This document shows positions 12,424 to 58,930 of a stretch of DNA of 64,000 bases, piece after piece. Numbering within the stretch: position 1 is the stretch's first letter; every line of letters begins with the position of its first letter. The notes under the pieces were generated by a model that saw nothing but the letters and a program-made list of their open reading frames with translations, was not told the origin of the DNA and ran no database searches. The stretch lies in NCBI GenBank assembly GCA_964501905.1, contig CAZCTW010000009.1:11342-75341 (forward strand). The letters are read 5' to 3'. The translations under genes and the position numbers were made by a program. The DNA comes from an uncultured Thermofilaceae archaeon (lineage in GTDB: Archaea; Thermoproteota; Thermoprotei; Thermofilales; B69-G16).

Positions 12424-13677
12424 CTATTCGAATGCCCAGGCGAAATTTTCTAAACAGAAATTTATTAAAAAGAACAAAACAATAAAGGCAATCACTTTCT
12501 TGAGAGCTTCATAACTCCTATGCCGGGTTAAGTCTAGACTTAGAGAGGAGATAAAGAGCGAGAATATATACCCCGCTAGGAAAAGAGTTAAATTGTTATT
12601 GGCTTTTTTAAATATAAAAATTAAAGCGAAAACTAAAGCTATTGTTGCGGAGGAAATATAGTATACGATGTCGGATTTATATTTTAAAATATGCATTTTA
12701 TCGCATAAATCTTTTAACGTTATTCTGCCTTTTCTTAAAACTATAATAAGATTTTCAATCTGTCTAATTCCTGTCTCAAGGCTGCTATTTTCCAGTATAG
12801 TGCTAATACCATTGAGGAAATGATCTGAGCTATTTAGGAGATGTCTTCGGGAGAAAAGCCATTCAGCAAATCTATCCTCGATTAACTCCTTTTTGTTATT
12901 TTTGAGGAACTCCTTCAGAGCATTTTCAAAATTCACACTCTTTTTCAGGCGTTCTAATGTCCACGAGAGCAATAGTTCGAAATTTAGATTTTCTTTTAAT
13001 AATTCTTTACATCTATCATCTCGTTCAGATTTTTTTAGATAAAGATAAAGGGTTAAGAGTATGAGAAAGAATAGAACTATGTAAGCAGGGTTTGAGTATT
13101 TACAATAGAATAAGAATTCAATTCCACCTAGCGTGGAAGTAAAAGCGGCCAATATTGCAACATTGAAATTTAACCGGTAATCACTTATTTTACTGGCTAG
13201 GAAGAAGTGCAGGATAATAGTAGAGAATGTTAAGAAGAGAAATGCTCTATAGAAATCCAGTATTCCGAAAAAAATAGAGAGAGAAAGGAATATCGGGATA
13301 AAAGCTGTTAAAGCTACAAAAAGCATTATTTTATCCTCTAATTTCTTAATGTAGCTCTTAAAGAGTAACTGTTCTTCATCAAATATTCTGAGGGGATACT
13401 CTTTTATTTCTCTTTGAGGTGGGGGTGAGAAGAAAAGCAATTTAATTAAGTATGGCAGGTGTTCATCTTTGAAATTTCCGTTATCTTCTTTTATGAAATT
13501 GCGTAAGTTGAAACTGATCTTCTTAAATAAATCTGACGAAGAGATTTTAGCTAAATCCCTTACTGCTTGATAAGTATTGCCTCTTCTAGAGAGATAAAGA
13601 ACTACAAAAATTATTGTATCTTGTACAGTGGATATGAAATCTTCAAATTTCACTTTTACACCTGGCCAGGAATTCAT
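12424..13677 (-). CDS. TadC/FlaJ-like polytopic platform protein of a type IV filament system
   Basis: 417 aa. Two blocks of hydrophobic helices, each preceded by a charged soluble segment. Overlaps the ATPase gene by 35 nt. Position and architecture fit the T2SSF family; no sequence search was done. Confidence 0.6.
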   Translation of the reverse strand: MNSWPGVKVKFEDFISTVQDTIIFVVLYLSRRGNTYQAVRDLAKISSSDLFKKISFNLRNFIKEDNGNFKDEHLPYLIKLLFFSPPPQREIKEYPLRIFDEEQLLFKSYIKKLEDKIMLFVALTAFIPIFLSLSIFFGILDFYRAFLFLTFSTIILHFFLASKISDYRLNFNVAILAAFTSTLGGIEFLFYCKYSNPAYIVLFFLILLTLYLYLKKSERDDRCKELLKENLNFELLLSWTLERLKKSVNFENALKEFLKNNKKELIEDRFAEWLFSRRHLLNSSDHFLNGISTILENSSLETGIRQIENLIIVLRKGRITLKDLCDKMHILKYKSDIVYYISSATIALVFALIFIFKKANNNLTLFLAGYIFSLFISSLSLDLTRHRSYEALKKVIAFIVLFFLINFCLENFAWAFE

Positions 13678-15514
13678 TAAGGCATAACCGTATACCCTTT
13701 AGGTTTTTACTGTTTAGTAGTTCTCTAATTCGCTTTATGAGGAGTATTACCTGCGTCTTTGAGAATCTATTTTCAATGGATATTTTTTCAATTAACCTAG
13801 AATTTTCATATGCAAGGGTTCTTTTAAGTACGTTATCGCTTTGTCTAATAAAGAGAGGATGAAACCAGCGAAGAGGATACTTTTCTTCAATGCTTGCAGC
13901 TCTCTCGAGAATCAGCGATACTTCCTTTTTATCTCTCCGATAAAGGTCTCTTCTCATGAAGACTATTAGATCGAGGCTTTTTAGAAGACTAGGCGAAATA
14001 GAGAAAACTTCGGTATACCTGTATATTAATTGTTCTAAACTAAGGGCGTGCGTAGTCTGCATACACCTTAAGCCAGCATTCATAGCGTGAAAAGCCGCCA
14101 CTACATGTTCCCTGCTCTGCAACTCTCCCAGAATTAAATAATCAGGTTTCCGATGTAACATTTTCACAATTTCAATAGCTTTACTCGAAGGCCCCCACTC
14201 CGATTCTTCAAAAGCACCAACTTTAAGCCTTAATTGATGCTTACCCTCTTTTAATTGGTTAACAGATTCAACCACATCTTCGATGTATACCTTTCTGAAA
14301 GTTCTAGGAAGTAGCATATCCAGAGCGTTAAGTAGCGTGGTCTTACCACTTCCGGGTTCGCCGCATATAAGTATATTAGACCGGAAAATAGCCGCTATTA
14401 GCAAGAAAGCCGCGGCATCTGCTGTAAGAGTGCCGCTATTTACTATGTCCACCAAGGTCATAGGTTTATTTCGGTATTTCCTGACGTCTAAAGCTACGCC
14501 GTCTACTGCAAGTGGAGGTACGTCTACAGCAACTCTAACTCTGAATAAGCAAGTTATGTAGTCTGTTTTTAGTGAGGGTGACGAAAATGAGATGAAACTT
14601 CCTGTATCAATTTTTATATGGGTTAGAAAGGCTTCTAACTCCCTCGGGGATAGCGCTATGTTAGATAGGCATCTTCCGTATTTTTCATGGTCCAAGTAGA
14701 TTTTCGTAGAGGGGGCATCTTGGAAAAATTCCTGCACATAGTCGTCTAAGAGAAATGGCATTACACGGGTTACCTTAATTGAACTAAAAAATGATAGGTA
14801 AGCCAATTTTTTCAATTCCCTCTTTGTGATTCTTGAGAGAACATCCGGACAGAAACTTTGCGCTATGCCATGGAATAGGCTAAGTCTGTGATCGAGAATA
14901 TCATCAAAGTGAGCTATTGCAATTTTCTTAAAGAAATATCTTCGGTCGTATTCCACTAACAAACTCCCTAAGGACATATATGAAAGCTTAACATCTACGC
15001 ACTCTGAGAAAATTCTCACTCGATAAAAACTTTCTAATGTTTTTGTATCTAATATATCGACATTATAACAGTAAACTTCGTATGAATCTCTGATGGAGTT
15101 TTTCCTTTTTCTTTTTCCAGGAATTTTCTCAAGATTAATATACCGTAGCAATTCTCTATTTTGATCAAAAGAGAAATTTTTAGGAAGTAAACGCATCTTT
15201 TTAATAAAGTCTAAATTTCCATTCAATAGATTCTCAAGGGCATCATAGGCTTTATTATTGAAAACCGCCGATACTCTAACTTTGTTAACAGCGTCTGCGA
15301 GAGGCGCGAGGATGCTGAAGATAGTTTTCTTATCTAGAATAGCACATTCTTTGCCATCATAAAGTATTAAACTGCTAAATGATTTCAGCAAACGCGCTCG
15401 AAGAGAGAATACCCTAACTAATTCATCTAGAATCTCCTCGCCTAGTCTTCCATTATTTGTAAAGCCGATTTTTTTAACTTTAGAGCTCTGTCTTGCGTAG
15501 ATTTCTATTCTCAT
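13643..15514 (-). CDS. Type II/IV secretion-family ATPase (FlaI/TadA/VirB11-like) with ~350-aa unique N-terminal region
   Basis: 623 aa. Walker A ILICGEPGSGKTTLLNAL, IEDVVE, Walker B-like PDYLILGELQSRE, His-box MQTTHA. Confidence 0.85.
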   Translation of the reverse strand: MRIEIYARQSSKVKKIGFTNNGRLGEEILDELVRVFSLRARLLKSFSSLILYDGKECAILDKKTIFSILAPLADAVNKVRVSAVFNNKAYDALENLLNGNLDFIKKMRLLPKNFSFDQNRELLRYINLEKIPGKRKRKNSIRDSYEVYCYNVDILDTKTLESFYRVRIFSECVDVKLSYMSLGSLLVEYDRRYFFKKIAIAHFDDILDHRLSLFHGIAQSFCPDVLSRITKRELKKLAYLSFFSSIKVTRVMPFLLDDYVQEFFQDAPSTKIYLDHEKYGRCLSNIALSPRELEAFLTHIKIDTGSFISFSSPSLKTDYITCLFRVRVAVDVPPLAVDGVALDVRKYRNKPMTLVDIVNSGTLTADAAAFLLIAAIFRSNILICGEPGSGKTTLLNALDMLLPRTFRKVYIEDVVESVNQLKEGKHQLRLKVGAFEESEWGPSSKAIEIVKMLHRKPDYLILGELQSREHVVAAFHAMNAGLRCMQTTHALSLEQLIYRYTEVFSISPSLLKSLDLIVFMRRDLYRRDKKEVSLILERAASIEEKYPLRWFHPLFIRQSDNVLKRTLAYENSRLIEKISIENRFSKTQVILLIKRIRELLNSKNLKGIRLCLNEFLARCKSEI

Positions 15515-16557: not shown

Positions 16558-16642
16558 GGGCCCGTCGTCTAGTGGCTAGGGTCTCTGGCTAAGACGCCAC
16601 CCTCACGAGGTGGAGGTCCGGGTTCGATTCCCGGCGGGCCCA
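16558..16642 (+). tRNA. tRNA-Val(CAC) with a ~13-nt insertion (probable non-canonical intron) in the D-loop
   Basis: Acceptor GGGCCCG/CGGGCCC, anticodon arm CCACC-CTCACGA-GGTGG, T-arm CCGGG-TTCGATT-CCCGG. D stem GTCT/AGAC encloses 21 nt (AGTGGCTAGGGTCTCTGGCTA) with TGGCTA duplicated. Confidence 0.85.
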
Positions 16643-29020: not shown

Positions 29021-29132
29021 CCATTTTTATTAAACCCGTATAACTAGCAACAAACACTTACTAGCCTATTGACTTATTTCTAGCCACCAACCATAAGCAC
29101 TGTTCACAACCTACGAGTCCACAACGTCAAAA

Positions 29133-29531
29133 TCAACGCCGAGCAAAAGGAGCGCGGTCCTCCCTACTAAAAACAACATACCTAAATCCCCTCTTATTCT
29201 CAAACCTAACGTCAAAATACCTCACCAACTCCTCCTTCACTCTCCTATAAAAATACCGATTAGCTATATAAGAGGGAGGCTCCACCCTCGAAACAAGCCC
29301 TCTAACTCTCCTAAAATCCAACGTACCAAAAACATAAGCAGCATAACCATACTTCACCAAACTCCTAACCTTAACCGACACCCTACGAGACCTAGCACCA
29401 GCAACAATACACTCCGCCACCCTCAACACACAACCCAAAACACTACCCTGAACTCTCCCAACCCAACCCGACACCATACCAGCCATACCCCACAACCACA
29501 CCATATAAAACAAACACACCCCCCATCCCAT
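29133..29531 (-). CDS. Doubtful ORF (only the C-terminal ~80 aa look protein-like)
   Basis: 132 aa. The N-terminal half is G/W/V-rich, as expected from reading the G/T-rich strand of a skewed region. No motif recognised. Confidence 0.2.
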   Translation of the reverse strand: MGWGVCLFYMVWLWGMAGMVSGWVGRVQGSVLGCVLRVAECIVAGARSRRVSVKVRSLVKYGYAAYVFGTLDFRRVRGLVSRVEPPSYIANRYFYRRVKEELVRYFDVRFENKRGFRYVVFSREDRAPFARR

Positions 29532-29814
29532 ATCACCAAACTATTACAATCAAAAAACCCACGTACATACACAAACGCCAACACACCTCCACAACCTCAA
29601 CCAAACAAAACCCATGAACCAAAATACCAAAGAAACGAATATCCAACAACAAACCCTAAAACACACTACGACAAACACCTAACAAGACAAAAAACCACAT
29701 AACACCCCCAACAACAAACACTTACAAAAAAACCAAACGGAAAACTTAAAAACATAACCATATAATATAACACAGATGCAGACCCAGGGTTACGGCCCGG
29801 GGTCCAAGCCCCAA

Positions 29815-29939
29815 AGCGGGGTGGGGAAGCCAGGTAATCCCGCGGGGCTCATAAACCTCTGTCGGACAAAAACGAAAAAAGAGCCCCGACAGAGAATTGA
29901 GAGACCCCGAGGTCCCCGGTTCAAATCCGGGCCCCGCTA
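29815..29939 (+). tRNA. Initiator tRNA-Met(CAT) with a ~50-nt anticodon-loop intron
   Basis: A1:U72 acceptor AGCGGGG/CCCCGCT, anticodon stem CGGGG/CCCCG with three G:C pairs, loop CTCATA|intron|A. The intron holds a 9-bp hairpin CTCTGTCGG/CCGACAGAG, and TGAG pairs with the anticodon region. T-arm CCCGG-TTCAAAT-CCGGG. T-rich run follows. Confidence 0.9.
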
Positions 29940-30074
29940 TAGCCACTATTTTTTTTCTTTTCTTTCGAAAAGGAAACGAAATTTTTCTTTAATTATCGGT
30001 AATGGGACTCTAAGAGTTTTTCAAAAGTTTATCGGGAGTCACCGCGGGATTTTAGGTAGGTGGGGGTGGTTTGT

Positions 30075-31094
30075 TTATTGTTTGGTCCATCGTCCGTTTA
30101 TTTTTTTGTATAGTTTTTTCCATTTTTCTGCTGCTGTTTTTGTGTCGTATTTTTGTAGTAGGGTTAGTGCGTCTTGGAGTTTTTGTTGTTTGCGTTTTAT
30201 TTCGAATCCTATTTGTTGGGTGTATTTTTTGATGTCGTTTTTTCGGTAGATTACTAGTTGGTATGTTTCTTTGACTTTTACTTTCATGTTTTTTATTATG
30301 ATTTCTTCGTTTTCTTTTCGTACTTTTCTCCAGTGGCAGTGTATGTTTTTTAGTTTCAATAAGTATTCTACGAATTTTAGGAATTCTATGGAGGAATTGC
30401 CTATAGTTATTGCAATGTAAAGTTTGCCTTTGCTCGGAGAAACGCACGGCCCTCCGTCTCCGTCGAATGCTCCTTTTAGGAATTCGTTGGGGTATATGTA
30501 TGCTATGATTTTCCAGAGGTTTATTTTGCAGATGTAGCGTATTGTTGTTCCGTTGTGGTAGACTACGTATCTTCCGTCTTTTGTTTTGGATATTTGGTAT
30601 TTTTTGCCTGTTATTTTTGATAGTTTTTGTGCGTATTTTTCTGCGTAGTCTCGGTCTTTTACTCTTAGTTTTGCTGTGGTGCTTCGGCAGGCGTCTGTGA
30701 GTGCTGTTCCTATTATGTAGCCTAGTTCTGGGGCTGTTTTTAGTGGTGTTGTTCCTGGTTTTGTTTTGCCGGTGATCCACCAGTATATGGTCATTGGTGG
30801 TATTTTGATGCCTAGTTTTTCTTGGAGTTTTTTGGCTATTTTTCTGCGTCCTAGTTTTTTCATGGTTAGGGCTAGTTTGTAGGCTTTGTTGTATAGTAGG
30901 GCTTTTTGTAGTGGTGTGGGTTTGTATGGTATTAGTTCGTTATGATAGATTTTCTCGATTTGGTCTTTGGGGATTTTAGAGCGGTAGATTTTTTGAATTA
31001 TTTTCACCGCGTCTTCTATTTTGTAGCCTGCGGTTTTGAGGAGGAGTACCGCGTCGAAGATTTCAATAGGAATTTTCCTACTCTCCATACTCAT
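30075..31094 (-). CDS. LAGLIDADG-type (double-motif) endonuclease-like protein with N-terminal HTH region
   Basis: 339 aa. Motif 1 LGYIIGTALTDA, motif 2 FLKGAFDGDGG. N-terminal GRRKIAKKLQEKLGIKIPPMTIYWW is HTH-like. Confidence 0.7.
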   Translation of the reverse strand: MSMESRKIPIEIFDAVLLLKTAGYKIEDAVKIIQKIYRSKIPKDQIEKIYHNELIPYKPTPLQKALLYNKAYKLALTMKKLGRRKIAKKLQEKLGIKIPPMTIYWWITGKTKPGTTPLKTAPELGYIIGTALTDACRSTTAKLRVKDRDYAEKYAQKLSKITGKKYQISKTKDGRYVVYHNGTTIRYICKINLWKIIAYIYPNEFLKGAFDGDGGPCVSPSKGKLYIAITIGNSSIEFLKFVEYLLKLKNIHCHWRKVRKENEEIIIKNMKVKVKETYQLVIYRKNDIKKYTQQIGFEIKRKQQKLQDALTLLQKYDTKTAAEKWKKLYKKINGRWTKQ

Positions 31095-31099
31095 CCCCC

Positions 31100-31460
31100 C
31101 TCGCTCTCCGTCTAACAGAGTAGCGGGGTCGTATGGAGAGTCGCTGCTAATCTCTGACGATTTTCAGCCTCCTCGTGTCATCAGAGGCTCGCTGTGGCAG
31201 GGCTCCGCGCCCGCTGGTATGCCGGCCTCCCCTCCGGAGCCCTTCGCGGAGGAGAGGTAGGGGCCGGGCTTTTTGCCCGCTTAAGGCATGGCCTACAAGC
31301 GGGCGTCCGCAAGGCATAGCCTACGCGGACCTGAACCCCCAACCCTTCTCCCTCAACATCGTGGAGGGTTGGGGGTAAAAAAGAGCCCGGCTTTCCCCTC
31401 TGTGATGCGGTGACCCCCTCATTGGCTCGGGGATCCTGCCCAAACCCCAAGGTTTGGGCA
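31100..31460. other. GC-rich, hairpin-dense non-coding block (candidate structured RNA or replication/packaging origin)
   Basis: No credible ORF, only skew-generated shadows. Contains a 10-bp stem CCCCCAACCC/GGGTTGGGGG (31336-75), twin hairpins at 31275-31330, stem GGGCTCCG/CGGAGCCC (31200-41), and a 9-bp hairpin GCCCAAACC-CCAA-GGTTTGGGC (31438-59) 3 nt past the ATPase stop. Confidence 0.4.
31275..31330. repeat. Two abutting hairpins with different stems but near-identical 14-nt loops AAGGCAT(G/A)GCCTAC
   Basis: GCCCGCTT-AAGGCATGGCCTAC-AAGCGGGC followed directly by GTCCGC-AAGGCATAGCCTAC-GCGGAC. Each loop can itself form AGGC/GCCT. Confidence 0.7.
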
Positions 31461-31461
31461 T

Positions 31462-33279
31462 TCATTGGTATATTTGGAGGAGTATGTGCGCTTTTTCTGT
31501 GAGTTTTCCTTTTTCGTTTATGTATCCGTGTTTTCTGAGGGTTTTTCTCTCTTGGAGGGTTGTTTGTCCTTTCTGGTATTTTCTGATTAGGTGTGCTATT
31601 TTCTCCCACTTGTCTACGCGTCTGTGTTTTCTCTGGGGCGGCGTCGGGGTGTATCTGGGTTTTACCTTTATGTGGGCTATTCTCCCTCTCTGGGATGTTA
31701 TGCATTCTCCTGTTTCGAGTTTTTCGATTTTCGCTGTTAGTTCTCTATGTCTGCTGGGGGATAGGGCTTTGGCGGCTATTTCCGCGTCTACTCCGGTGCA
31801 GTGGAAGACCGCTATTGTCTCGGCGTTGTTTATGATTGAGCTGTGGAGGGTGCTGGGGGTTTGGGTTGCGGCTATTATCTTTACTCCGTGCTTCCTCCCC
31901 TCGTCCATTAAACGCTCTAGGAAGGTTTTCGTTTTGAGGAATCTGGGAGCCAGCCTCTGCGCCTCGTCTAGGACCAGCACGGTTTCCATGCTTGGAGGAT
32001 CGTAGTACAGGTTTTGGAGGAGGAACCAGGTGAAGACTGTTTTCTCGTAGTCGGTTTTTAGGCTGGATAGGTCGATTGCATATATTCCCTTGTCCTCGGG
32101 CGGGGGTAGGTTTCTGTTGAAGCACCTACCCGTAAGCCTGGAGAGCCTCCTCTTGACGGCTGCGGCGGCGTTTCTCTCGTCTTCCCTCCTAATATCCATC
32201 GAGGACAGCGCTTCGTACAGGGTTAGGGGGGTTACGGGCAGTCCTAGCTTTTCCACTTGGAGGGCGGCTTTTCTAGCTACTTCATACTGGATTGGGCTGA
32301 ACTCGCTCCTCTGGGTGGTGTAGAAGAGTATCTCCTCTATGCTATCCCATCCGTGGTCGAAGCCTAGCCAGAAGGGGTTTACGTAAACGTCTACGCCGGG
32401 GATTAGCCTATAGCCTAGACCCGCGTATTCCCCGTATCAGTCCAAGATCAGCACTCTCTTCTCTCTGCCCAGCCCCTCCACCAGCCTGGCTATAAACGTG
32501 CTCTTGCCCGAGCCGCTCGCGCCAATCACTAACACGTGGGTCTCCACTTCTATACCGGTGATCCCATTCCTGGTGCAGCCTATTTCAACTCCTTTATCCT
32601 CGTGGTAGGTGGAGCCTCTGACCATAGCGCTGGCCGTCTCCCACACGTACTCGCAGGCCTTTAGCTTCGTCAACTCTTTCGCCCGCCTGCCCCCTAGGGG
32701 GTAGAGCCCGGTCTTTAACAAAACCTTCTTCCCCGTCTTCATCCCCTCTATTACGAGCACGGCGGCTCCCGGGTTTCCATAGGTTTTAATCCTAGAGCCC
32801 ACCTTCAGTTTAGGCAGCTCGGCTAGAGGCTTGAGCTTAAAGCCCATCTGCTCTAGCGCCCAGCGAGGGCTGTAGCCGTCATCTAGGATGAGGTAATGTT
32901 TCTCGAAGGCTATTAGACACCTGTTATCCAGGGTCCTTACGAAGTATAGCCTACACTTCTCGGGCACGTTAAGCTTTAACTCGAAATCCCCGGGAACCCC
33001 CGTTACGGCGTAGATTTCCAGCCGGCATCCCCACAGTCCGTGTGCTCCTCTAAAATACTCCCCGTTCCACCTGTAGCTCAGGTATAAGAGTTTGAGGATC
33101 TTGGGGACTAGGATTGACGAGAGTATGGAGATGATGACTGGCAGGAAGCTAAATCTTATCCACGGCAGGGCTATTATCGAGCCTATGTAGATTATCCAGG
33201 GCGGCATCCTGGTTTTTAAGCCGTTGAGTATTTGCGTTGTTATCTCCTTCAAAGCCTCGAGGGGCATATCCTCAGCCAT
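31462..33279 (-). pseudogene. Membrane-anchored HerA/VirB4-like (DUF87-type) ATPase interrupted by one in-frame TGA
   Basis: ORFs 32437-33279 and 31462-32256 are in the same frame, and 32257-32436 is open. The single stop at 32437-32439 sits in VLILD*YGEY (hhhhDxxGEY motif). Two N-terminal TM helices, Walker A GASGSGKST, Walker B VLVLDEAQ. Confidence 0.75.
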
Positions 33280-33281
33280 GT

Positions 33282-33350
33282 TAGATTTTATCTAAAATAT
33301 TAGAATTTTAATATTTAATATTAACGCTATGTGATCTAAATTTTTTAGAT
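33282..33350. promoter_or_regulatory. AT-only divergent control region with three palindromes
   Basis: TAGAT-TTT-ATCTA (33282-94), TTAATATT-T-AATATTAA (33308-24), ATCTAAA-TTT-TTTAGAT (33334-50). Lies between divergent starts at 33279 (ATPase) and 33381 (wHTH). Confidence 0.5.
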
Positions 33351-40012: not shown

Positions 40013-40108
40013 TGGGCCCGGCGGGATTCGAACCCGCGACCCCCCGGTTGTGCCCTCGGCTACGAGCCGAAATGAGCCGGGTGCTCTACCTAGCTGAGCT
40101 ACGGGCCC
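40013..40108 (-). tRNA. tRNA(CAT) (elongator Met or Ile2) with a ~22-nt anticodon-loop intron
   Basis: Acceptor GGGCCCG/CGGGCCC, D-arm GCTC-AGCTAGGTA-GAGC, anticodon stem CCCGG/CCGGG enclosing CTCAT-[TTCGGCTCGTAGCCGAGGGCAC]-AA, T-arm GCGGG-TTCGAAT-CCCGC. Exact junctions are ambiguous. Confidence 0.85.
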
Positions 40109-41847: not shown

Positions 41848-42435
41848 ATGAGGGTTTTTCTCGTCAAAGCTTCCAAAGCTTGCACTTCTTCGAATTTCAA
41901 CATAAAATCTTTCGCCGGATCTAGTGGTAGGCTTGACGTAGTGGCTAGGTCTATCCTCGCCGCCCTAAGGTTAGCGAGGGGGGTTAGGAGGAATGTTATC
42001 TTTCTCGGAGTTCTTGAAGGCCCTCCAAATCCTCCTAAGTTGCTTAAGGTTATTGGAAAGGAGCTTAGAAAGCTTCCGGAGAGCGAAGTAGAAATCGCTA
42101 GAATTTTTTTGAGATTATTTAAGGGCGAGAATGTGGAAGGTTTCTACTTGGAGAATAAGGGTTTTAGAGATGTTGTCTTAGAATTTGTTCAGAGCCCATG
42201 CACTGTTGTTTACTACTTGGAGAGGGATGGTGTGGATATTAGAGAGGTTATTTTCCCAAAGGATAAAGACCTAGTTTTCATCTTGGGGGATCATATAGGT
42301 TTGGATAGAGATAGCGAGCTTTTTTTAAGAAAACTAGGAGTGCGAGTTATTAGTCTAGGTCCAAAGGTTTACTTTACTAGTCATTGTATAACGATGGTAA
42401 ATGAGGAGTTAGATAGACGGGAGTTCCTTTCTTAG
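41848..42435 (+). CDS. trmY: tRNA (pseudouridine54-N1)-methyltransferase TrmY (SPOUT)
   Basis: 195 aa. SSGRLDVVARSILAAL, GPPNPP, C-terminal SHCITMVN. Matches my memory of the Mj1640 family. Confidence 0.8.
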   Translation: MRVFLVKASKACTSSNFNIKSFAGSSGRLDVVARSILAALRLARGVRRNVIFLGVLEGPPNPPKLLKVIGKELRKLPESEVEIARIFLRLFKGENVEGFYLENKGFRDVVLEFVQSPCTVVYYLERDGVDIREVIFPKDKDLVFILGDHIGLDRDSELFLRKLGVRVISLGPKVYFTSHCITMVNEELDRREFLS

Positions 42436-44508
42436 ATTTACGTCGTTTATTTTTACACGCCTCAAGTACTCGTCTCTCGCCGGCCTTGGAGCACGCTCTA
42501 AAGGGCGGTAGTCGATTATTATCTTGCCATAATGCACTATGTAGGGTTTAATTGAAAGGCAGTTCGGGCACATATCGGCGTAATAGGAAGTTCTATATCC
42601 GCAATATCCACACTCCGTGTAGTCGTAGGATAGGCTTATGATTTTTAAGTTTGAGTTTAGGAGTTTTTCCAAAAGCGTTTTAAAGCTTCCAGGGGTAGGA
42701 AATGGGTTGCCAAATTCTAAACTGAAGATACTCGGTATTCCAGTTTCTTCGAAAAGGAGTTTTTCTCCTAAAATTCTGGGCTTTATTGAACGAGACGCCT
42801 TAGAAAATGGGCTTAGTAGATTAAAGCTTTCAATCGTGGGGGGAGAGAGGTTTAGTTCTCTAGTTTTATATTCTAGGGCTCTATGGTTAACTTCATATAA
42901 ATTTATGTCAGAGGATGAATAACATACAGCTATTTTCTTTTCCAAAGATTCTTCAAGTTCGGCTTTAAGGTTTTTAAGCACTCTAACTACAGATTCATAA
43001 ACGTATTTTGTTTTCAAGTCTAATTTCTCCAACAGTATGCTAGTCGCTGTTTCTCCTCCTAAAATGGAAAGGATATTTATCAGCTTCACTGAGGCAGCAT
43101 TTACATGCCTCGTTAGACTCTGTATCTTCTGGAGGAATTTTTTCTTCTGGAGATACTCTCTCTTTCTCTCAATTAATTCGTTTAAATTCGGTATTAGGCT
43201 CTTTAGAAAATCCTCGGCTATCACTCTGTCCTTCTTGGAGTATATCGCTAACACTGGCAGTAGCAGGTTAAATGAGTTCTCTATCACAGTTATCTCTCCA
43301 CACTCGCTTTCCTTCAAAACATGGGCTAATGCGAGCACAAAACTATGTTTTTCAGCATTATTCACTAGTATTATCGGAATATGCCTCAGTATTAGGCTAT
43401 AAAGTAGCCCGTATAAATCCATCAAGACGTGTCTGTTTTTAACATTGAGAATTAAAGGAGGGCCGTGATATTTCTCGTTTAGGCTTATTTGTCTGAGTAT
43501 AATTTTTGTAAAATCATCAAGCTCGCTTTCTTCCCCGAGACAAATTTCGACGGCCAATTTTTCGTATTTTAAATTGTCCCATATTAAAGCTAAGGTTTTA
43601 ATGTTTTTAGCTATAAAATCTTCTAACTTTAAATTCCTCTGTTGGAGGTAGATGTTATATAACGTTTGATTATAACGTCTCAGAAATAGCGAATGTGTAA
43701 AACTTTTCACATGTAGAAGGGCATTGTAGAAGTCCAAGAGGCATGCTCCTTTGGTTATACAAGAGGTATCCAGGATAATTGTTTCGGTTTTAAACATCCA
43801 ACTATATAAGTCGGAGATATAGAAAACGCCTGCTTGAATTAGGGCTTTTGTGTTACTTGGTATTTCGCATAATAGGTTGTAGGAGGTTAAGATTCTGTGG
43901 TAAATATTTTCTTCAACTTCAGAAAAATTCTCGCATTGTTCCAAAATTTTCTTCAATTGATTTTTCTTAAATCCTATTAAAGCATTTTTAGAGAAGTATT
44001 CAGTCAAGTTGTTCTTTAAGAGAACTGAGAGAATTATATTATCTAATTCATGTTTTTCATAAGATACACGGTTTGACTCGATAAGGAATTTCTCTATATC
44101 ACTATATACCGCCCTTATATGTCTAGAATGCATATCATACTCCTTTTTTAAAATGTTGGTGAGGGCATATGTATCATATTTAAAGGCTAATCCTAACTCG
44201 TCAATTATGTGAAGTCCCAACTCCTGCTTTAAGAGTTCTCCTTCGAGTTGCTTGAGAAGTTCGACGGTTTTTTTGCCTAAAGCTGTTAATGTATAACGGC
44301 GTTGTCCATAGCTGTAATCTAAATCGATCATATTAGCGTTTTTTAAGAAAGATAGATGATAGTTTAGCTCACCTGAGCTTTCTATATTAAGTTTCTCCAT
44401 TAAGTCAGTATACCTAAGGGGGCCATGCGCGTCTATAGCGAAAAGTATTTTTATCCTCTTCTTAGAGGATAGGGCTTTAGCTAGGGTATCTATTTTAGTC
44501 TTTTTCAT
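42409..44508 (-). CDS. wHTH + ATP-cone-like + divergent class III ribonucleotide reductase (NrdD)-like protein
   Basis: 699 aa. ArsR-type wHTH (LRYTDLMEKLNIESSGELNYHLSFLKNANMI), ATP-cone-like segment, IQAGVFYISDL (cf. NrdD G.iHihDl), C-terminal Zn ribbon CGYCGY...CPNC followed by HYGKIIIDYRP...ARDEY. Confidence 0.5.
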   Translation of the reverse strand: MKKTKIDTLAKALSSKKRIKILFAIDAHGPLRYTDLMEKLNIESSGELNYHLSFLKNANMIDLDYSYGQRRYTLTALGKKTVELLKQLEGELLKQELGLHIIDELGLAFKYDTYALTNILKKEYDMHSRHIRAVYSDIEKFLIESNRVSYEKHELDNIILSVLLKNNLTEYFSKNALIGFKKNQLKKILEQCENFSEVEENIYHRILTSYNLLCEIPSNTKALIQAGVFYISDLYSWMFKTETIILDTSCITKGACLLDFYNALLHVKSFTHSLFLRRYNQTLYNIYLQQRNLKLEDFIAKNIKTLALIWDNLKYEKLAVEICLGEESELDDFTKIILRQISLNEKYHGPPLILNVKNRHVLMDLYGLLYSLILRHIPIILVNNAEKHSFVLALAHVLKESECGEITVIENSFNLLLPVLAIYSKKDRVIAEDFLKSLIPNLNELIERKREYLQKKKFLQKIQSLTRHVNAASVKLINILSILGGETATSILLEKLDLKTKYVYESVVRVLKNLKAELEESLEKKIAVCYSSSDINLYEVNHRALEYKTRELNLSPPTIESFNLLSPFSKASRSIKPRILGEKLLFEETGIPSIFSLEFGNPFPTPGSFKTLLEKLLNSNLKIISLSYDYTECGYCGYRTSYYADMCPNCLSIKPYIVHYGKIIIDYRPLERAPRPARDEYLRRVKINDVNLRKELPSI

Positions 44509-44627
44509 TATAATTCGTTATAGTTGATATGGTTAATAAAGTTGGCATTAATCACCTATGGAGAAATAGGAACCTGAAGAAATAGTTTTTAAACCTTCAG
44601 CTTACATGTTCATTATAGCTCAATGTC

Positions 44628-49005: not shown

Positions 49006-49098
49006 CGGGCCCGCCGGGATTCGAACCCGGGACCACCGGCTGTCTACAATTTGGTAATTACCGCAGGCCGGCACTCTATCCAGCTGAGCTACGGGCCC
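49006..49098 (-). tRNA. tRNA-Arg(GCG) with a 19-nt canonical (37/38) intron
   Basis: Acceptor GGGCCCG/CGGGCCC with G73. Anticodon stem CCGGC/GCCGG enclosing CTGCGG[TAATTACCAAATTGTAGAC]A. T-arm CCGGG-TTCGAAT-CCCGG. Confidence 0.9.
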
Positions 49099-49190: not shown

Positions 49191-50018
49191 ATGGAAAGTT
49201 TCAAAAAGAATAAAAGCTATTTTTTAATTTGGTGTTTTAGAATGGCAGAAGGATATGAGTATATGGTAAAAGGACAAAAAGAGGCTAGAATAGGTTTAGA
49301 CAGCGAAGAAGATATTATTCGTATGATAAATTTCAATGAAAAATTCCGTAATTTATTAAAGGAGTGTCTTATAACACTCGGTTTTAATCCCAAAGAAAGG
49401 ATAATAGCACGAAAGGATGGCGTGAAAACAGATATTCTCATACGAATCAATGAACAAGAAGAAATCGGTGTAAGTATAAAGTCAAGTACAAAAACTAGTT
49501 TTCATCAACTAGATAGAAGACGTCTTGAAGAGTGGAAAACGTTTCTGAACATGCCGGATGAAATTTTTGAAATAATAAAGGAAGCAATATTGCGAATTGC
49601 TAGAAATTCTAGAAATAAATTCATATTAGAAAAAAATCAAGATAAAATAAGAAATTTCCTTGCTAAACATCTTCGTGAAATAATAAATGAAATATTTAGA
49701 AAAGGAGAGCAAAAATTGAAATTATTCATGATAAATGATAAAAGGAAAAGAAGAATATATATCTTTCATATGGATGATGTTCTTAACTTTCTGTTTAAAA
49801 ATGCAAATAATAACATATCTTTTACAGAAAAAGGAATTATAAGACTTGGTAACTTTATGACGATTCAAAGAAAAGGTGGTGATGGAAAACACATCACTAT
49901 TCCCAAAACCGATTGGAGACATCCTGGCAATCAGCTGCAATTTAAGTTTTCTCCATTAAAATTTGCAGAATACATTGAATTAACAAAGGCAATTAAATTC
50001 TGTACTATAGATTACTGA
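49191..50018 (+). CDS. Type II restriction endonuclease candidate (PD-(D/E)xK-like)
   Basis: 275-aa ORF; likely start is MAEGYEY at 49242. KTDILIRINEQEEIGVSIKSS looks like a D...E.K / SxK catalytic strand. Converges on and overlaps the methylase gene by 14 nt. Confidence 0.55.
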   Translation: MESFKKNKSYFLIWCFRMAEGYEYMVKGQKEARIGLDSEEDIIRMINFNEKFRNLLKECLITLGFNPKERIIARKDGVKTDILIRINEQEEIGVSIKSSTKTSFHQLDRRRLEEWKTFLNMPDEIFEIIKEAILRIARNSRNKFILEKNQDKIRNFLAKHLREIINEIFRKGEQKLKLFMINDKRKRRIYIFHMDDVLNFLFKNANNNISFTEKGIIRLGNFMTIQRKGGDGKHITIPKTDWRHPGNQLQFKFSPLKFAEYIELTKAIKFCTIDY

Positions 50019-52074
50019 ATAATGCTTGATATAAGTCACTAATGATTTTTTCTGGGTTTTCAATACCGATAAGTTTGGCTATGGAGAGATCAAGTTTGTA
50101 TCTATATTCTTTGTTTAATTGTTCCCATAAAGGTGGAAGAGGTTTATTTAACACTTTGTTAACGTTTTCAATAACTTCTACCATTGCTTCTTTATTTATC
50201 GCATTTATATTGACTATAGGCAATTCAACATAGTCATTTTCTAGAAATCTAGTCCATGTTTCTGAAATTCTTCTACCCAGTAACATTAGAACTGAAATAA
50301 AAATTGTGCTATTAAACCAACCAATGAGAAGCTTTGAAAGAGTTTCATCATTGTTTCTAACAATGTAAAAATTCTTAGAAGCAGCTACCTTTTCTTTTGT
50401 GTAATTCGCAAATACACTTCTATTTTTGAATAGCAAATCTACTTTATCAGGAACAAAAACTTGTCCAAATGGTTTCTTAATTGTTATTTGTTTATGAACA
50501 TGACTATACCAGTATTTGCCGTAGGCATTTATAGCTGGTTTTGCTGTACCCGAACTAAAACCCCACCTAATATATTCACGAAGATCACTTGGCAGCTTAT
50601 TAATTTCAACTGGAGGAATTGAAAGCATGAACGTATTAACTTCGGCTTCAATTTTATGGCTATAAAGGCTTGGCTTACGAAGAGTTTTTACTAAAAATTT
50701 TTTATTTAAGGATAATTCAGTTTTAGTTTCTAAGTATTGGATTTTCACAAAATCACTTTCTTCTTTTGTGATTTTCCAGTATTTGTTTGGGATGAAAAAG
50801 AATTCAGGTCCGTACATCTCAACTCCTCTTATGATGCTACTCTTGCCAAGTATATCGTTCCAATACCCTAATGTTCTCTTTTTCAATCCTTGTTTAAATA
50901 TATTAACAATAATATTCCTGAGCTTACCCTCTCCGAATAAGGCTAGCCAATTAATGTCTAAGAATCGTGGCAAATTATGAAGATTTATCGTATTCGCATA
51001 TGGTTTTCTAACATCTCTTTTATTCATAATAATCTTAGCTACTTCTTCGATGTTATTATTCAACTCAATAAATACTGTTGATCTGTCTTTATTATCGCCT
51101 TTAACAGCTACTATGATCACTTCTTTAAATCCACTATCCTCTGAGAATGATGCTCTTGATTTGCACTCTACCATGGCATATATTCCATATTTCTTTCTTA
51201 GCAAGGATTTGTATCCTCTTCCATATATAGTATAAAATGTAGAAGCTGGAAGTACCGATATGAGCAAACCACCACTATTTAAAATATAATCACAAAGAAA
51301 CATAGACAAAGTTTGAAGACTCACTTCCCTTCGAGTTATGTACTTTTCATATCCTAATTTTTCTATAATTGTAAGAAGATAGTTTCGATACTTCTTTTCT
51401 AAATATTTCCATCGAGTAAAGGGAGGGTTCGTTAGGATAACATCTGCCTTTGGCAATTCGCATTGTATAACAAATGGTGAAGAAACCTTGGATATTTCTT
51501 TGAATGCATCTCCAACTATTACAGTAACAATATCCTTTTTCCCCTTCGTTACATGTAATAGCGATGCATAAGCAACTAGAGCTGGTAAGGGTAATGGTTC
51601 TATACCCCATGCTTTCTGTACTTTTTCTACTCCTATTTTTTTAATGGCAGTTGTTAATGTGGAGCCAGAACCAAGAAATGGATCCGCAAGAACGACTTTT
51701 TCGTTTCTTGAGCGTTTTAGAAATTCTTCAACAACTAGTGCCATAAGATTCGTTCCCTGTTGTATAGTATAATATGCTGCAAATTTCTTCCTCTTTTCTT
51801 GGGGGATTAACTTTTGGACTCTTACTTGACATTCCTCAATTGAAAGATTTATTTTCTGTATTTCCGATTTGATAAATCTAATTTCAGTAGAGTCTAATTT
51901 TCTTAAATTTGGTAATATTGGAGCATTCCATGATGCTAATGACTCTATGTCATCTTCATCACTGTATTTTAATATAGTAGCTAGGGCAGTGATAAAAATT
52001 CTGAAACTTTCTTTGCTAACAGGCTCTATTCCTAACTTTTCTAGTATTTTATTAGCTCTCATCTTTCTTTTCAC
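50005..52074 (-). CDS. N6-adenine DNA methyltransferase (gamma-class) with large C-terminal target-recognition region
   Basis: 689 aa. Motif I LADPFLGSGST, motif IV ILTNPPFTRW. Confidence 0.85.
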   Translation of the reverse strand: MKRKMRANKILEKLGIEPVSKESFRIFITALATILKYSDEDDIESLASWNAPILPNLRKLDSTEIRFIKSEIQKINLSIEECQVRVQKLIPQEKRKKFAAYYTIQQGTNLMALVVEEFLKRSRNEKVVLADPFLGSGSTLTTAIKKIGVEKVQKAWGIEPLPLPALVAYASLLHVTKGKKDIVTVIVGDAFKEISKVSSPFVIQCELPKADVILTNPPFTRWKYLEKKYRNYLLTIIEKLGYEKYITRREVSLQTLSMFLCDYILNSGGLLISVLPASTFYTIYGRGYKSLLRKKYGIYAMVECKSRASFSEDSGFKEVIIVAVKGDNKDRSTVFIELNNNIEEVAKIIMNKRDVRKPYANTINLHNLPRFLDINWLALFGEGKLRNIIVNIFKQGLKKRTLGYWNDILGKSSIIRGVEMYGPEFFFIPNKYWKITKEESDFVKIQYLETKTELSLNKKFLVKTLRKPSLYSHKIEAEVNTFMLSIPPVEINKLPSDLREYIRWGFSSGTAKPAINAYGKYWYSHVHKQITIKKPFGQVFVPDKVDLLFKNRSVFANYTKEKVAASKNFYIVRNNDETLSKLLIGWFNSTIFISVLMLLGRRISETWTRFLENDYVELPIVNINAINKEAMVEVIENVNKVLNKPLPPLWEQLNKEYRYKLDLSIAKLIGIENPEKIISDLYQALFSNL

Positions 52075-56099: not shown

Positions 56100-57713
56100 G
56101 TGTTACTTGCTGTCGAGATTAGGTTTAAAAAGGTTATGGACATGCTGGAAGAGATATACATACCGGACACAGATGCAATATTGAGAGGGGTAGTTAGGAG
56201 ATTAATCGAAAGAAACGAGATAAGGGGAAAGATACTGGTCCACATGCTAGCAGTCGATTTCTTCGAGAAAATGGCTAGGGAGGGCGGTAGCCAGGGGTTA
56301 GTGGGTCTGCAGGAGCTAACGATGTTGAGGGAAGCCGTTAATGCAAACCCTAAAGTTGACATAGAATATACCCGGGAACTGCCTGAAGGTCATAAATTCA
56401 GAGGGGATCTGGACATTAATGATATAATAAGAGACTTAGCTCTGGAGTTAAACGCGGTTTTAATAACTTCAAGTCCGTTAAGAGCTCAGAGCGCTAAGGC
56501 CCTAGGTATTCAAGTTATATTTGTTGGTGGAAAAGATTCGAAGCGGTTAATTTTAGATGAATTCTTCGATAATAACACTATGTCTGTTCACCTCAAGGAA
56601 AACGTCTGCCCATACGCTAAAAAAGGCACGCCTGGTAAGTGGCGTTTCGTACCGCTTCGCGATACTCCAATGACTCGAGTTGAAATAGAGGAGATAGTTA
56701 GAGAGATAATAGAGGCTGCCAAAACATCACAAAGAGCTTTTATAGAAGTTGAGAGATCAGGATCGACGATTATTCAGTTAGAGAACTATAGGATAGTCAT
56801 TACTAGGCCACCGTTTTCCGACGGCATCGAGGTCACGGCTGTGAGACCTATTGCTAAGTTATCTCTGGAAGATTACAACCTACCGGCTAAGCTTATTCGT
56901 AGACTTGAGAAGCAGGCCGAGGGGATATTGATAGCAGGTGCTCCCGGAATGGGTAAGACCACGTTTGCCCAAGCCTTAGCCGAATATTACCACAGGAAGG
57001 GGAGAATAATAAAAACAATAGAGTCCCCCAGAGATATGCAGTTGCCGGACGAGATTACTCAGTACTCCAAGAGTCACGGTACGTCAGAAGAAGTTCATGA
57101 TGTGCTCTTACTGTCTAGGCCTGATTACACATTCTTTGATGAAATGAGGGATACTAAAGACTTTGAGCTCTACGCCGACCTCAGATTAGCTGGCGTGGGT
57201 ATGGTGGGAGTGGTGCATGCTACGAGCCCGATAGATGCTATTCAACGGTTTGTAGGCAGGGTAGAGTTAGGTATGATACCTTCCATAATAGATACTGTCA
57301 TCTTCATAGAGAACGGAGAGGTAAGGAAGGTATACGAGCTAGAGACTGTAGTGAAAATACCGCATGGTTTAAGGGAGGCTGACTTAGCTAGACCCGTAGT
57401 GGTTGTCAAAAACTTCCTCACAGGCGAGCCTGAGTATGAACTTTACGTCTTCGGAGAAAGGACTTTCGTCGTCCCCGTGAAGCGGACTAAAACGGCTAGG
57501 GAGAGGAGAGTAGAGACAGCGATATACGCTGCACTCAGGAAATACATACCTGATGAAGACATCGAGATAGAAATTTCCCAAAATGGTAACGTGACGATAC
57601 ACGTAGATCCCGAGTACTACAACGTGTTGTTAACTAGTAAAGTACGCAGAAAAATAGAAAGAATCGGTAAAAAACTTGGAGTGAGCATAACGTTTAAACC
57701 TAAGTTCAGATAA
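56100..57713 (+). CDS. PIN-domain + PilT/PhoH-like P-loop ATPase + KH-like tail (COG1855-type)
   Basis: 537-aa ORF; probable start is MDMLEEIYIPDTDAIL. Walker A GAPGMGKTTFAQAL, FFDEMRD. Confidence 0.8.
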   Translation: MLLAVEIRFKKVMDMLEEIYIPDTDAILRGVVRRLIERNEIRGKILVHMLAVDFFEKMAREGGSQGLVGLQELTMLREAVNANPKVDIEYTRELPEGHKFRGDLDINDIIRDLALELNAVLITSSPLRAQSAKALGIQVIFVGGKDSKRLILDEFFDNNTMSVHLKENVCPYAKKGTPGKWRFVPLRDTPMTRVEIEEIVREIIEAAKTSQRAFIEVERSGSTIIQLENYRIVITRPPFSDGIEVTAVRPIAKLSLEDYNLPAKLIRRLEKQAEGILIAGAPGMGKTTFAQALAEYYHRKGRIIKTIESPRDMQLPDEITQYSKSHGTSEEVHDVLLLSRPDYTFFDEMRDTKDFELYADLRLAGVGMVGVVHATSPIDAIQRFVGRVELGMIPSIIDTVIFIENGEVRKVYELETVVKIPHGLREADLARPVVVVKNFLTGEPEYELYVFGERTFVVPVKRTKTARERRVETAIYAALRKYIPDEDIEIEISQNGNVTIHVDPEYYNVLLTSKVRRKIERIGKKLGVSITFKPKFR

Positions 57714-57805
57714 GTAGTTAGCATAACAATAGAGCAAAGAGATAATCTAAAGATGAGTTTAATTATGAGAACTCCACTTCTAATAAATAGAATCGAGGTC
57801 TAAAC

Positions 57806-58930
57806 ATGGCGATCAGATCCTGTAGAAGATGCATCTACTATACACCGAGCAGGAGTTACTGTCTAAAGCTGATGAAAAAAATCGAAAATCCCGACGAGCC
57901 TCCATGCATGCAGATAAGTTCACCCCAGAATCAGAGCCGTAAGGGATCTATAGTAGCAAAGCCGGTTTTACCAAAGAGCGAGAAGATTCAAATTGAAGAA
58001 GAGAAAAGGTTGAACAATAATAGTTTCAGAGATGAAGATACTCAAATGGAAGCACTAGCATATAATCCGACTCTTGAGGAAACAGCTAGATCTCAGACAG
58101 TGATCTCATATCCGCCTCAACAATATCAATTAAATGAGAAAGTTCTAAGCTCTTTCTCTACACTTGTGTCTTATAAGTTGCCGTCTGAGTTTAGAGATTA
58201 CTATACCTCTACCGGGATACCATACCTAGATGAAATCCTGGGTGGGGGTTTTCTAAGAGGGAAAACATATCTAGTAGCTGGCGAAACTGGTTGCGGAAAG
58301 ACAATTTTTTCATTGCAATTTCTAATTTATGGAGCATTACATGGAGAACCTGGAGTTTACATAGCTATAGACGAGCCTACTGATCAACTTATAAAGGGTA
58401 TTAAGCAGTTTGGTTGGGATGTAACACCGCTTATAAAAGCGAGAAAGCTCCTCTTCCTTGACATGAGGACTCACTTCAGCAAGATATACTTGAGAGATGA
58501 AAGGAAGAAAATAGAGCCCAAATACATCATTGAATCTATAATAAAAAACGCTAAAGAAGTGAGAGCTAGAAGGCTAGTCATAGACCCTATAGCGCCGCTA
58601 ATATATGGCGGAACTAAGGATGACGTGTTGTATGCGAGGGAGTTTCTAAGAGAGATGGTTTTTGCTATCGAAAAAACGGGGAAACTGACTACAGTGATGA
58701 CGAGTGAGATCCCCACAGGGAGTAAACAGCTAAGTCGCTTTGGTGTGGAGGAGTTTCTAGCTTCGGGAATAATTGTTCTAGGCTTAGAAGAAATAGGGGG
58801 GAGAATTGAACGAGTTATGTACATTAGGAAAGCTAGGTGGTCCCCCGTAAGACCTGGTAAGTTTATTTTTGATATAATCCCCGGCACGGGTATTGTTATT
58901 AAGGGTCCATTGGAGAAGTTTAAAAGCTAG
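57806..58930 (+). CDS. KaiC/RadB-like RecA-superfamily ATPase with Cys-rich N-terminus
   Basis: 374 aa. CRRCIYY...YC...PPC, then GIPYLDEILGGGFLRGKTYLVAGETGCGKT and RLVIDPI. Confidence 0.8.
   Translation: MAIRSCRRCIYYTPSRSYCLKLMKKIENPDEPPCMQISSPQNQSRKGSIVAKPVLPKSEKIQIEEEKRLNNNSFRDEDTQMEALAYNPTLEETARSQTVISYPPQQYQLNEKVLSSFSTLVSYKLPSEFRDYYTSTGIPYLDEILGGGFLRGKTYLVAGETGCGKTIFSLQFLIYGALHGEPGVYIAIDEPTDQLIKGIKQFGWDVTPLIKARKLLFLDMRTHFSKIYLRDERKKIEPKYIIESIIKNAKEVRARRLVIDPIAPLIYGGTKDDVLYAREFLREMVFAIEKTGKLTTVMTSEIPTGSKQLSRFGVEEFLASGIIVLGLEEIGGRIERVMYIRKARWSPVRPGKFIFDIIPGTGIVIKGPLEKFKS

Follow-up and report, generated by a model that had tools for sequence, protein, structure and literature searches.

A catalytically dead anaerobic ribonucleotide reductase fused to an ArsR-type winged helix: a candidate regulator of deoxynucleotide supply in Thermoproteota

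Among described systems, the anaerobic ribonucleotide reductases (RNRs) of the NrdD family (class III, glycyl-radical enzymes; PF13597, TIGR02487; PDB entries 1H78, 4COI, 8P23 and 9DCA) come closest to the protein reported here, being homologous to it and collinear with it over the ATP-cone, the barrel, the Cys4 zinc ribbon and the C-terminal hairpin. The bacterial repressor of nrd genes, NrdR, is a protein of about 150 amino acids (aa) in which an N-terminal zinc ribbon is followed by an ATP-cone; because it is rare in archaea (PMC9110341), the control of RNR expression in archaea is essentially unknown. Regulators of the ArsR/SmtB type (HlyU, CzrA, ArsR; HTH_5, HTH_20, DUF7347) usually stand alone at about 100 aa, and they resemble the N-terminal 90 aa of our protein in both sequence and structure. 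Our study concerns a 699-aa protein encoded in a stretch of 64,000 nucleotides (nt) from an uncultured Thermofilaceae archaeon (contig CAZCTW010000009.1), which we call the window and analyzed at its full length. We present evidence that this protein belongs, as a divergent branch, to a large Thermoproteota family in which a winged helix-turn-helix (wHTH) is joined to an NrdD body that has lost its radical residues, and we consider what the family may regulate.

The open reading frame (ORF) is confirmed with an ATG start. An initial annotation, made from the letters alone, had read its product as an ArsR-type winged helix, a segment of ATP-cone character, NrdD-reminiscent blocks, a class III RNR zinc ribbon and a decayed glycyl-radical tail, and our results agree with this domain reading in every part. 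Searches of Pfam, NCBIfam and PDB (phmmer) with the single sequence gave no above-threshold match to NrdD, only sub-threshold matches at the C-terminus (19.9 bits against a Pfam cutoff of 26.2; E = 5e-6 in NCBIfam), and the similarity is decisive only through the profile of the family. An exhaustive profile search identified 243 clusters at 50% identity, mostly of 600-770 aa and matching at the N- and C-termini in the same way, and from it we drew an alignment of 38 sequences, the window protein first and its relatives after it (A2). A word-indexed homolog search recovered 4 close relatives only, even when given the 38-sequence alignment. The A2 profile matched crystal and cryo-EM structures of NrdD (8p23, 4coi, 4u3e) with E values of about 1e-34 over about 500 columns, and hhalign paired it with E. 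coli NrdD at 98.6% probability over 578 columns (residues 12-705), in a collinear alignment that begins with the ATP-cone and extends to the C-terminus. Taken member by member, the Pfam NRDD model matched 33 of the 38 sequences (best E = 2.6e-91), ATP-cone 19 and DUF7347 37.

The predicted structure points in the same direction. An AlphaFold2 (AF2) model built from A2 reached a predicted local distance difference test score (pLDDT) of 88.7 and a predicted template modelling score (pTM) of 0.84; a first model from 4 sequences (pLDDT 51.6) was not used. In Foldseek, every one of the 33 best PDB matches of the model was a class III RNR (E as low as 9e-18; template modelling (TM) score on the target up to 0.64), with class I RNRs and other glycyl-radical enzymes ranking after them; the RNR-fold similarity proposed at the outset is thus present in both the profile and the structural comparison. 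The block IQAGVFYISDL, which the initial annotation had likened to NrdD, does pair with HERGDIHYHDL of E. coli NrdD. The profile alignments and the model together mark the window protein as a full-length NrdD homolog that descends from an ATP-cone-bearing form, carries an ArsR-type wHTH at its N-terminus and shares the predicted fold of NrdD, with a barrel homologous to the ten-stranded alpha/beta barrel of that enzyme.

The N-terminal assignment is well supported by independent models, since both DUF7347 (aa 11-83; E = 2.8e-8, 34.3 bits, cutoff 27.6) and HTH_5/ArsR (E = 7.9e-5, 22.9 bits, cutoff 22) match above their cutoffs, PDB profile searches return HlyU and ArsR, and Foldseek returns CzrA and HlyU with a TM score of 0.77. 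Residues R18, H51 and G78 of this domain are essentially invariant, being kept in 112-115 of the 115 full-length family members compared. The ATP-cone is a more qualified case: aa 108-176 align with residues 12-89 of E. coli NrdD (hhalign), and the AF2 model of the region consists of a beta-hairpin and helices, which is in line with the proposed ATP-cone character, but the module is degenerate and the Pfam ATP-cone model, which matches half of the A2 sequences, does not match the window protein. The family consensus of the cone, VRTS..EEF..LIRE..EYRH, has become IIDE..FKY..ELDN..EYFS in the window protein, and the basic KRDG-type motif of E. coli NrdD, which binds nucleotide phosphates, is replaced by IIDE.

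The residues on which NrdD catalysis depends are missing from the window protein. The place of the thiyl-radical cysteine in the finger loop (C384 in the GC384RS motif of E. coli; C330 in the CCRL motif of T. maritima) is occupied by FVLALAHVLK, whose hairpin strands (390-393 and 396-399) are still seen in the AF2 model. This column holds a cysteine in 0 of the 115 members, the family reading x-R-L with Ile, Leu, Ser, Thr or similar residues; the second active-site cysteine (E. coli C175), a Thr in the window protein, is likewise found in 0 of the 115. The C-terminal tail, HYGKIIIDYRPL...RDEY, aligns with the glycyl-radical motif of NrdD (YMRIVGYLVPV in T. maritima, RRVCGYLG in E. coli) and folds in the model as a hairpin (657-662 and 667-669), which confirms it as a decayed form of that motif; the radical glycine (E. 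coli G681, RVxGY) corresponds to Ile665 in KIIIDY. This register follows from the RVLGDY motif of the nearest outgroup, P0005, and from the alignments with NrdD (RV(C/V)GYL), and there is no glycine at alternative registers of the motif in the window tail. Across the family the radical glycine is kept in 18 of the 115 members, and the whole tail is absent in 49. The zinc ribbon has been better preserved: its four cysteines (C633, C636, C647 and C650) align with the zinc site of NrdD, as the initial annotation had it, are invariant in A2 and are kept in 93 of the 115.

The 64-kb window gives no sign of the activase NrdG, whose gene usually adjoins that of the reductase. None of the window ORFs of at least 80 aa carries the CxxxCxxC radical-SAM motif, tblastn with E. 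coli NrdG found nothing in the window, and all window ORFs of at least 500 aa were identified as other things, so the earlier statement that no NrdG gene lies nearby holds. Neither the window nor the flanks of the orthologs contain homologs of NrdG, RNR or dCTP deaminase. With the radical residues missing and no activase in the window, the protein is, as judged from its sequence, not a reductase, and its description as too divergent for a working one is borne out. Nitrososphaeraceae and Ca. Nitrosocaldus, where the family also occurs, are aerobes and would have no use for an enzyme whose glycyl radical is sensitive to O2.

The window protein is not a one-off; its relatives place it as a divergent member of a large Thermoproteota family, found in Thermofilum and other Thermoprotei, Bathyarchaeia, Ca. 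Nitrosocaldus and Nitrososphaeraceae, and the gene is kept intact in many archaeal lineages. Database names for its members range from 'hypothetical protein' and 'helix-turn-helix domain-containing protein' to 'anaerobic ribonucleoside-triphosphate reductase'. The last of these is explained by P0014 (Bathyarchaeia), which exceeds the NrdD equivalog cutoff of NCBIfam TIGR02487 (333.9 against 326.35 bits) with a Thr at the thiyl-cysteine position and an Ala at that of the radical glycine; because it passes this cutoff, its sequence suggests that the Bathyarchaeia forms lie closest to the ancestral enzyme. P0014, P0016 (Bathyarchaeia) and P0054 (Nitrososphaeraceae) are all deposited as anaerobic RNR despite lacking the thiyl cysteine and the radical glycine. 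Family-wide conservation is high over the wHTH, the cone-like module and the linker, and the barrel retains only scattered structural motifs (NLPR, G484, D534, GG). The clade of the window protein forms a divergent branch in which NLPR and GG are replaced, together with most consensus residues of the cone. Among its orthologs identity amounts to 65-78% in the wHTH, 44-73% in the zinc ribbon and tail (aa 621-699) and 33-54% in the barrel; a wHTH more constrained than the barrel is, on these alignments, the reverse of an enzyme pattern.

An indication of a role comes from the gene neighbourhoods of relatives. In every Nitrososphaeria locus with gene calls, an ATP-cone-bearing RNR lies directly downstream, and the two full-length RNRs tested belong to TIGR02504, the adenosylcobalamin-dependent NrdJ (779 and 759 bits, cutoff 400). 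We extended this observation with a metagenome scan that returned more than 542 loci, the best 80 of which were assessed for the downstream gene. An RNR follows directly on the same strand in 68 of the 68 Nitrososphaeria loci that could be assessed (those with about 850 nt or more downstream of the gene); the other 12 of the best 80 end within 731 nt and were not assessable. The linkage to nrdJ is obligate in the Nitrososphaeria branch. In L007, a positional ortholog from Thermoproteota, the next gene downstream, 17 nt away and on the same strand, encodes a dCTP deaminase.

The same Nitrososphaeria loci yielded a candidate operator. When the 512 canonical pentamers were ranked in the 150-nt stretches after the stop and before the start of the gene in 30 non-redundant loci, GTCAA/TTGAC came first in both, being present after the stop, toward nrdJ, in 27 of the 30 (composition-shuffled sequences: mean 7.6, maximum 15) and before the start in 24. 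Other promoters of these loci contain it in 23 of 68 cases (Fisher tests 1.7e-7 after the stop and 2.6e-5 upstream, values that are optimistic given the phylogenetic relatedness of the loci). The aligned occurrences define an imperfect palindrome, GTCAA-N6-TTnAC, in which about one helical turn separates the two half-sites. Of this 16-mer there are 49 copies in the flanks of the gene (350 nt per locus) and 10 in the other 648 kb, which makes it about 100-fold denser near the gene. In its GTCAA-N6-TTGAC form, the palindrome lies about 25 nt past the stop of the pseudo-NrdD gene, 30-50 nt before its start, or both; the upstream copy, at about -30 to -50, overlaps a TATA-like stretch. On these sequence grounds we propose it as a candidate operator. 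An earlier palindrome scan of four Nitrososphaeria loci had found nothing consistent; it took 69 loci for the motif to emerge. An 8-mer enriched downstream of the gene, TGACGTCA, was also considered as an operator and rejected, being the start of the nrdJ coding sequence.

The setting of the window gene is different in kind. It stands in the order S26e, Methyltrn_RNA_2 SPOUT methyltransferase, 699-aa gene, divergent SpoU methylase, DUF2192, L10e, archease, S10 and EF-1alpha, a neighbourhood of archaeal housekeeping genes that is retained in its orthologs and in more distant relatives. The closest genomes to this locus are Thermoprotei and Thermofilaceae metagenome-assembled genomes (MAGs); a locus search with the alignment of close relatives returned only two MAG contigs, and close orthologs are carried by the MAGs QMRG01 and JALURF01. 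Upstream of the ATG, CCAACTTTATTAACC is common to the window, L003 and L005 and, with 2 changes, L006, and probably represents a promoter element. Since the N-terminus of the 699-aa protein is kept among orthologs and this element lies 23-37 nt upstream, we favour the 699-aa start over the Joint Genome Institute (JGI) call for an identical sequence (P0001; 663 aa), which begins at Met37 and cuts the winged helix. For the ortholog P0002, the 721-aa call probably runs 24 codons too far upstream and takes in the TATA-like element of that gene. The window's CCAACTTTATTAACC resembles the Nitrososphaeria palindrome, with different spacing, and was treated as a TATA/BRE (B recognition element) element only. 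The gene had been called AT-rich, and it is mildly so (G+C content (GC) 0.363 against 0.41 for the window), with similar values in its neighbours SpoU (0.38) and archease (0.39). Because the synteny is conserved and the neighbours are similar, the low GC is no mark of foreign DNA, and AT-richness as a sign of horizontal transfer was rejected. We see no link to defence systems, PADLOC having returned only a generic wHTH match (Csa3).

Based on these results, we consider it on balance probable that the family represents a pseudoenzyme-derived transcription factor for the supply of deoxyribonucleoside triphosphates (dNTPs), made from a dead ATP-cone-bearing NrdD and an ArsR-type wHTH. An ATP-cone-bearing class III RNR would have acquired the N-terminal winged helix and lost catalysis; its body would dimerise as in NrdD and offer two wHTH domains to a palindromic operator; and the sites at which the reductase once bound nucleotides (its ATP-cone, specificity site and dead active site) would act as the sensor, so that dNTP-supply genes, and the regulator's own gene, are transcribed according to the nucleotide pool. 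DNA binding, nucleotide sensing and dimerisation are what we infer for the family as a whole. Compared with NrdD, the window protein has an additional wHTH, lacks the thiyl cysteine, the second cysteine and the radical glycine, has no NrdG partner nearby and, within its clade, is least constrained in the barrel. The likely mode of action is that of NrdR, a nucleotide-sensing module derived from RNR combined with a DNA-binding module, and the setting is also alike, given that the Nitrososphaeria gene adjoins an RNR gene and that the palindrome occurs at its own promoter and that of the RNR. However, the two are not homologous as wholes: here a wHTH, a cone, an NrdD body and a C-terminal zinc ribbon are arranged over 699 aa, a whole dead reductase body of about 500 aa is carried along, DNA binding would presumably be by the wHTH and not by the zinc ribbon, the family cone has no canonical KRDG motif, and the candidate operator is unlike NrdR boxes. 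Unlike stand-alone ArsR/SmtB regulators, the protein joins its wHTH to a 600-aa enzyme-derived body and gives no evidence of a metal-site motif.

Several observations weigh against the transfer of this regulator of dNTP supply to the window gene itself. Neither the window gene nor its close orthologs have an adjoining RNR or dNTP gene, all of them sitting between SPOUT methyltransferase genes and ribosomal-protein genes; a search of the window and of the Thermoprotei and Bathyarchaeia loci for the Nitrososphaeria palindrome found none, and the kinship of the loci behind the motif statistics tempers them where it does occur. The cone of the window clade is without nearly all the residues conserved elsewhere in the family, and even the family consensus (VRTS) departs from KRDG, so nucleotide binding is unproven and the nucleotide-sensing part of the initial annotation is the least secure for this clade. 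The regulator that the same annotation suggested receives strong indirect support from relatives (the nrdJ linkage, the dCTP deaminase neighbour, the palindrome and the constraint on the wHTH), and for the window gene it is by extension from them that its divergent clade may have kept the same job. Because the clade shows no local link to nucleotide metabolism, a degenerate cone and no operator, a changed target or ligand is a serious rival. In its explicit form, the protein would be a DNA-binding regulator of other targets, such as the divergent SpoU-type RNA methyltransferase and neighbouring translation genes, with the NrdD body as a dimerisation scaffold or a sensor of another ligand. The divergent pair of SpoU and the 699-aa gene, followed by Methyltrn_RNA_2 and S26e, is kept across Thermoprotei relatives of 19-58% identity, and a 119-bp intergenic region is common to the gene and SpoU; both would suit such a role, as would the degenerate cone and the missing operator. 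But a conserved housekeeping order is common in archaea and does not imply co-regulation, and the homologous family is tied elsewhere to nrdJ and the dCTP deaminase, so we regard this explanation as unlikely while giving it more weight than those that follow.

It is less likely still that the protein acts on another protein, for instance by modulating a real RNR, with the wHTH serving protein contacts or non-specific nucleic-acid binding. Pseudoenzymes often regulate active paralogs, nrdJ is tightly adjacent in Nitrososphaeria, and conservation is strong in the tail and zinc ribbon in the absence of catalytic residues. The partner there, however, is a class II RNR, not homologous to NrdD dimers at the level of the interface; the ArsR-type recognition helix (xYHL) is invariant, and the palindrome, with the spacing of its half-sites, is enriched at both promoters. 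A working, divergent anaerobic RNR with an N-terminal extension, its NrdG encoded elsewhere, would account for the retained NrdD architecture, the RVLG[YD]Y motif of some relatives and the Bathyarchaeal members that are annotated as NrdD above the NCBI cutoff, but it is already contradicted by the missing radical residues (no thiyl-position cysteine in any member, Ile665 for the glycine and a Thr for C175 in the window), and the lack of an activase in the window, a barrel that is the least conserved part and the presence of the family in aerobic ammonia oxidizers leave it next to no credibility. We find equally far-fetched the view that the gene is a decaying nrdD relic, a pseudogene in the making with no current function. 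The divergent barrel, the lost catalytic residues and the low GC would fit decay, but conservation contradicts it: ORFs of about 700 aa are intact in more than 100 lineages (clusters at 50% identity) and at more than 540 metagenome loci, position and promoter element are conserved, the wHTH residues are invariant and the fold is confidently predicted.

A regulator of dNTP supply made from a retired reductase might be taken further. We advance only tentatively, at a little short of even chances, that this family supplies the missing counterpart of NrdR in archaea, as a dNTP-pool sensor directly controlling the transcription of nrdJ and other dNTP genes across Thermoproteota, in which the reductase's own allosteric sites would sense the ligand and GTCAA-N6-TTGAC would be the operator in Nitrososphaeria. 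Our full-text literature searches found no description of a wHTH joined to an NrdD-like protein and nothing on the family; the components are known, and the combination, a retired radical enzyme as the sensor of a transcription factor beside an active RNR gene, is not, as far as we found. For the control of RNR in archaea the family offers a testable candidate whose operator and target (nrdJ) are predicted; its members extend over Thermoprotei, Bathyarchaeia and Nitrososphaeria, the last of these ecologically dominant. If the proposal is true, its reach includes the globally abundant ammonia-oxidizing archaea, and it would provide a clear example of a whole radical enzyme turned into a ligand-sensing transcription factor, which bears on the evolution of pseudoenzymes and on RNR allostery. 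The current annotation of many members as NrdD can also mislead metabolic reconstruction, for example by suggesting anaerobic dNTP synthesis in aerobic ammonia oxidizers or in Bathyarchaeia. The coordinates of the features discussed are collected in Table 1.

Table 1. Positions of the 699-aa gene, its predicted domains and related elements (window coordinates, except for the Nitrososphaeria loci).
Feature	Position	Strand	Evidence
Whole gene, wHTH / ATP-cone-like / pseudo-NrdD, 699 aa	42409..44508	-	ORF; syntenic orthologs 43-58% identity; AF2 model
Probable TATA/BRE-like element CCAACTTTATTAACC	44531..44545	-	23-37 nt upstream of ATG; conservation across loci
N-terminal ArsR/SmtB-type wHTH, aa 5-92	44233..44496	-	Pfam, PDB profile matches, Foldseek, family invariance
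Degenerate ATP-cone-like module, aa 98-181	43966..44217	-	hhalign to E. coli NrdD ATP-cone
NrdD-like alpha/beta barrel core, aa 186-625, predicted catalytically dead	42634..43953	-	Profile against PDB, hhalign, Foldseek
Finger-loop hairpin remnant, aa 390-399, FVLALAHVLK, no Cys	43312..43341	-	NrdD alignments, AF2 hairpin
Cys4 zinc ribbon, C633, C636, C647, C650	42559..42612	-	Invariant in A2; aligned to NrdD zinc site
Glycyl-radical domain remnant, aa 655-695 (Ile665 codon 42514-42516)	42424..42546	-	Motif alignments, AF2 hairpin
Candidate operator, palindrome GTCAA-N6-TTGAC	L039 7114-7129; L060 7106-7121; L086 3734-3749; 40 other Nitrososphaeria loci		
339-aa / 280-aa ORF pair	30075-31094 and 32437-33279 especially	-	LAGLIDADG_3 domain; C-terminal HerA/FtsK-type P-loop

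Our study also recorded other features of the window. At 29100-33300 (reverse strand), a 339-aa ORF with a LAGLIDADG_3 homing-endonuclease domain follows, on the same strand, a 280-aa ORF whose very C-terminus is a HerA/FtsK-type P-loop; the AT skew of this region is extreme and mirrored (+0.39 / -0.46), and it looks like an ATPase gene that is broken or interrupted by an intein or homing endonuclease. At 49191-52074, an R.HinP1I-like restriction endonuclease ORF (forward) converges with a 689-aa N6-adenine DNA methyltransferase ORF (reverse) with a 14-nt overlap of their 3' ends, where the GC of the window is at its lowest (0.32) and next to the EF-1alpha/tRNA region, and this pair is likely an acquired restriction-modification module. 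Rfam identifies three tRNA genes of 85-96 nt, probably containing introns, at 16558-16642 (forward), 40013-40108 (reverse) and 49006-49098 (reverse); ARAGORN finds two of them (Val-CAC and Thr-CGT) and misses the one at 49006-49098. The divergent thermosome (Cpn60/TCP-1) subunit genes at 6787-8418 (reverse) and 8606-10255 (forward) and the two T2SSE/KaiC-type ATPase genes at 13643-15514 and 56100-58930 are ordinary archaeal content.

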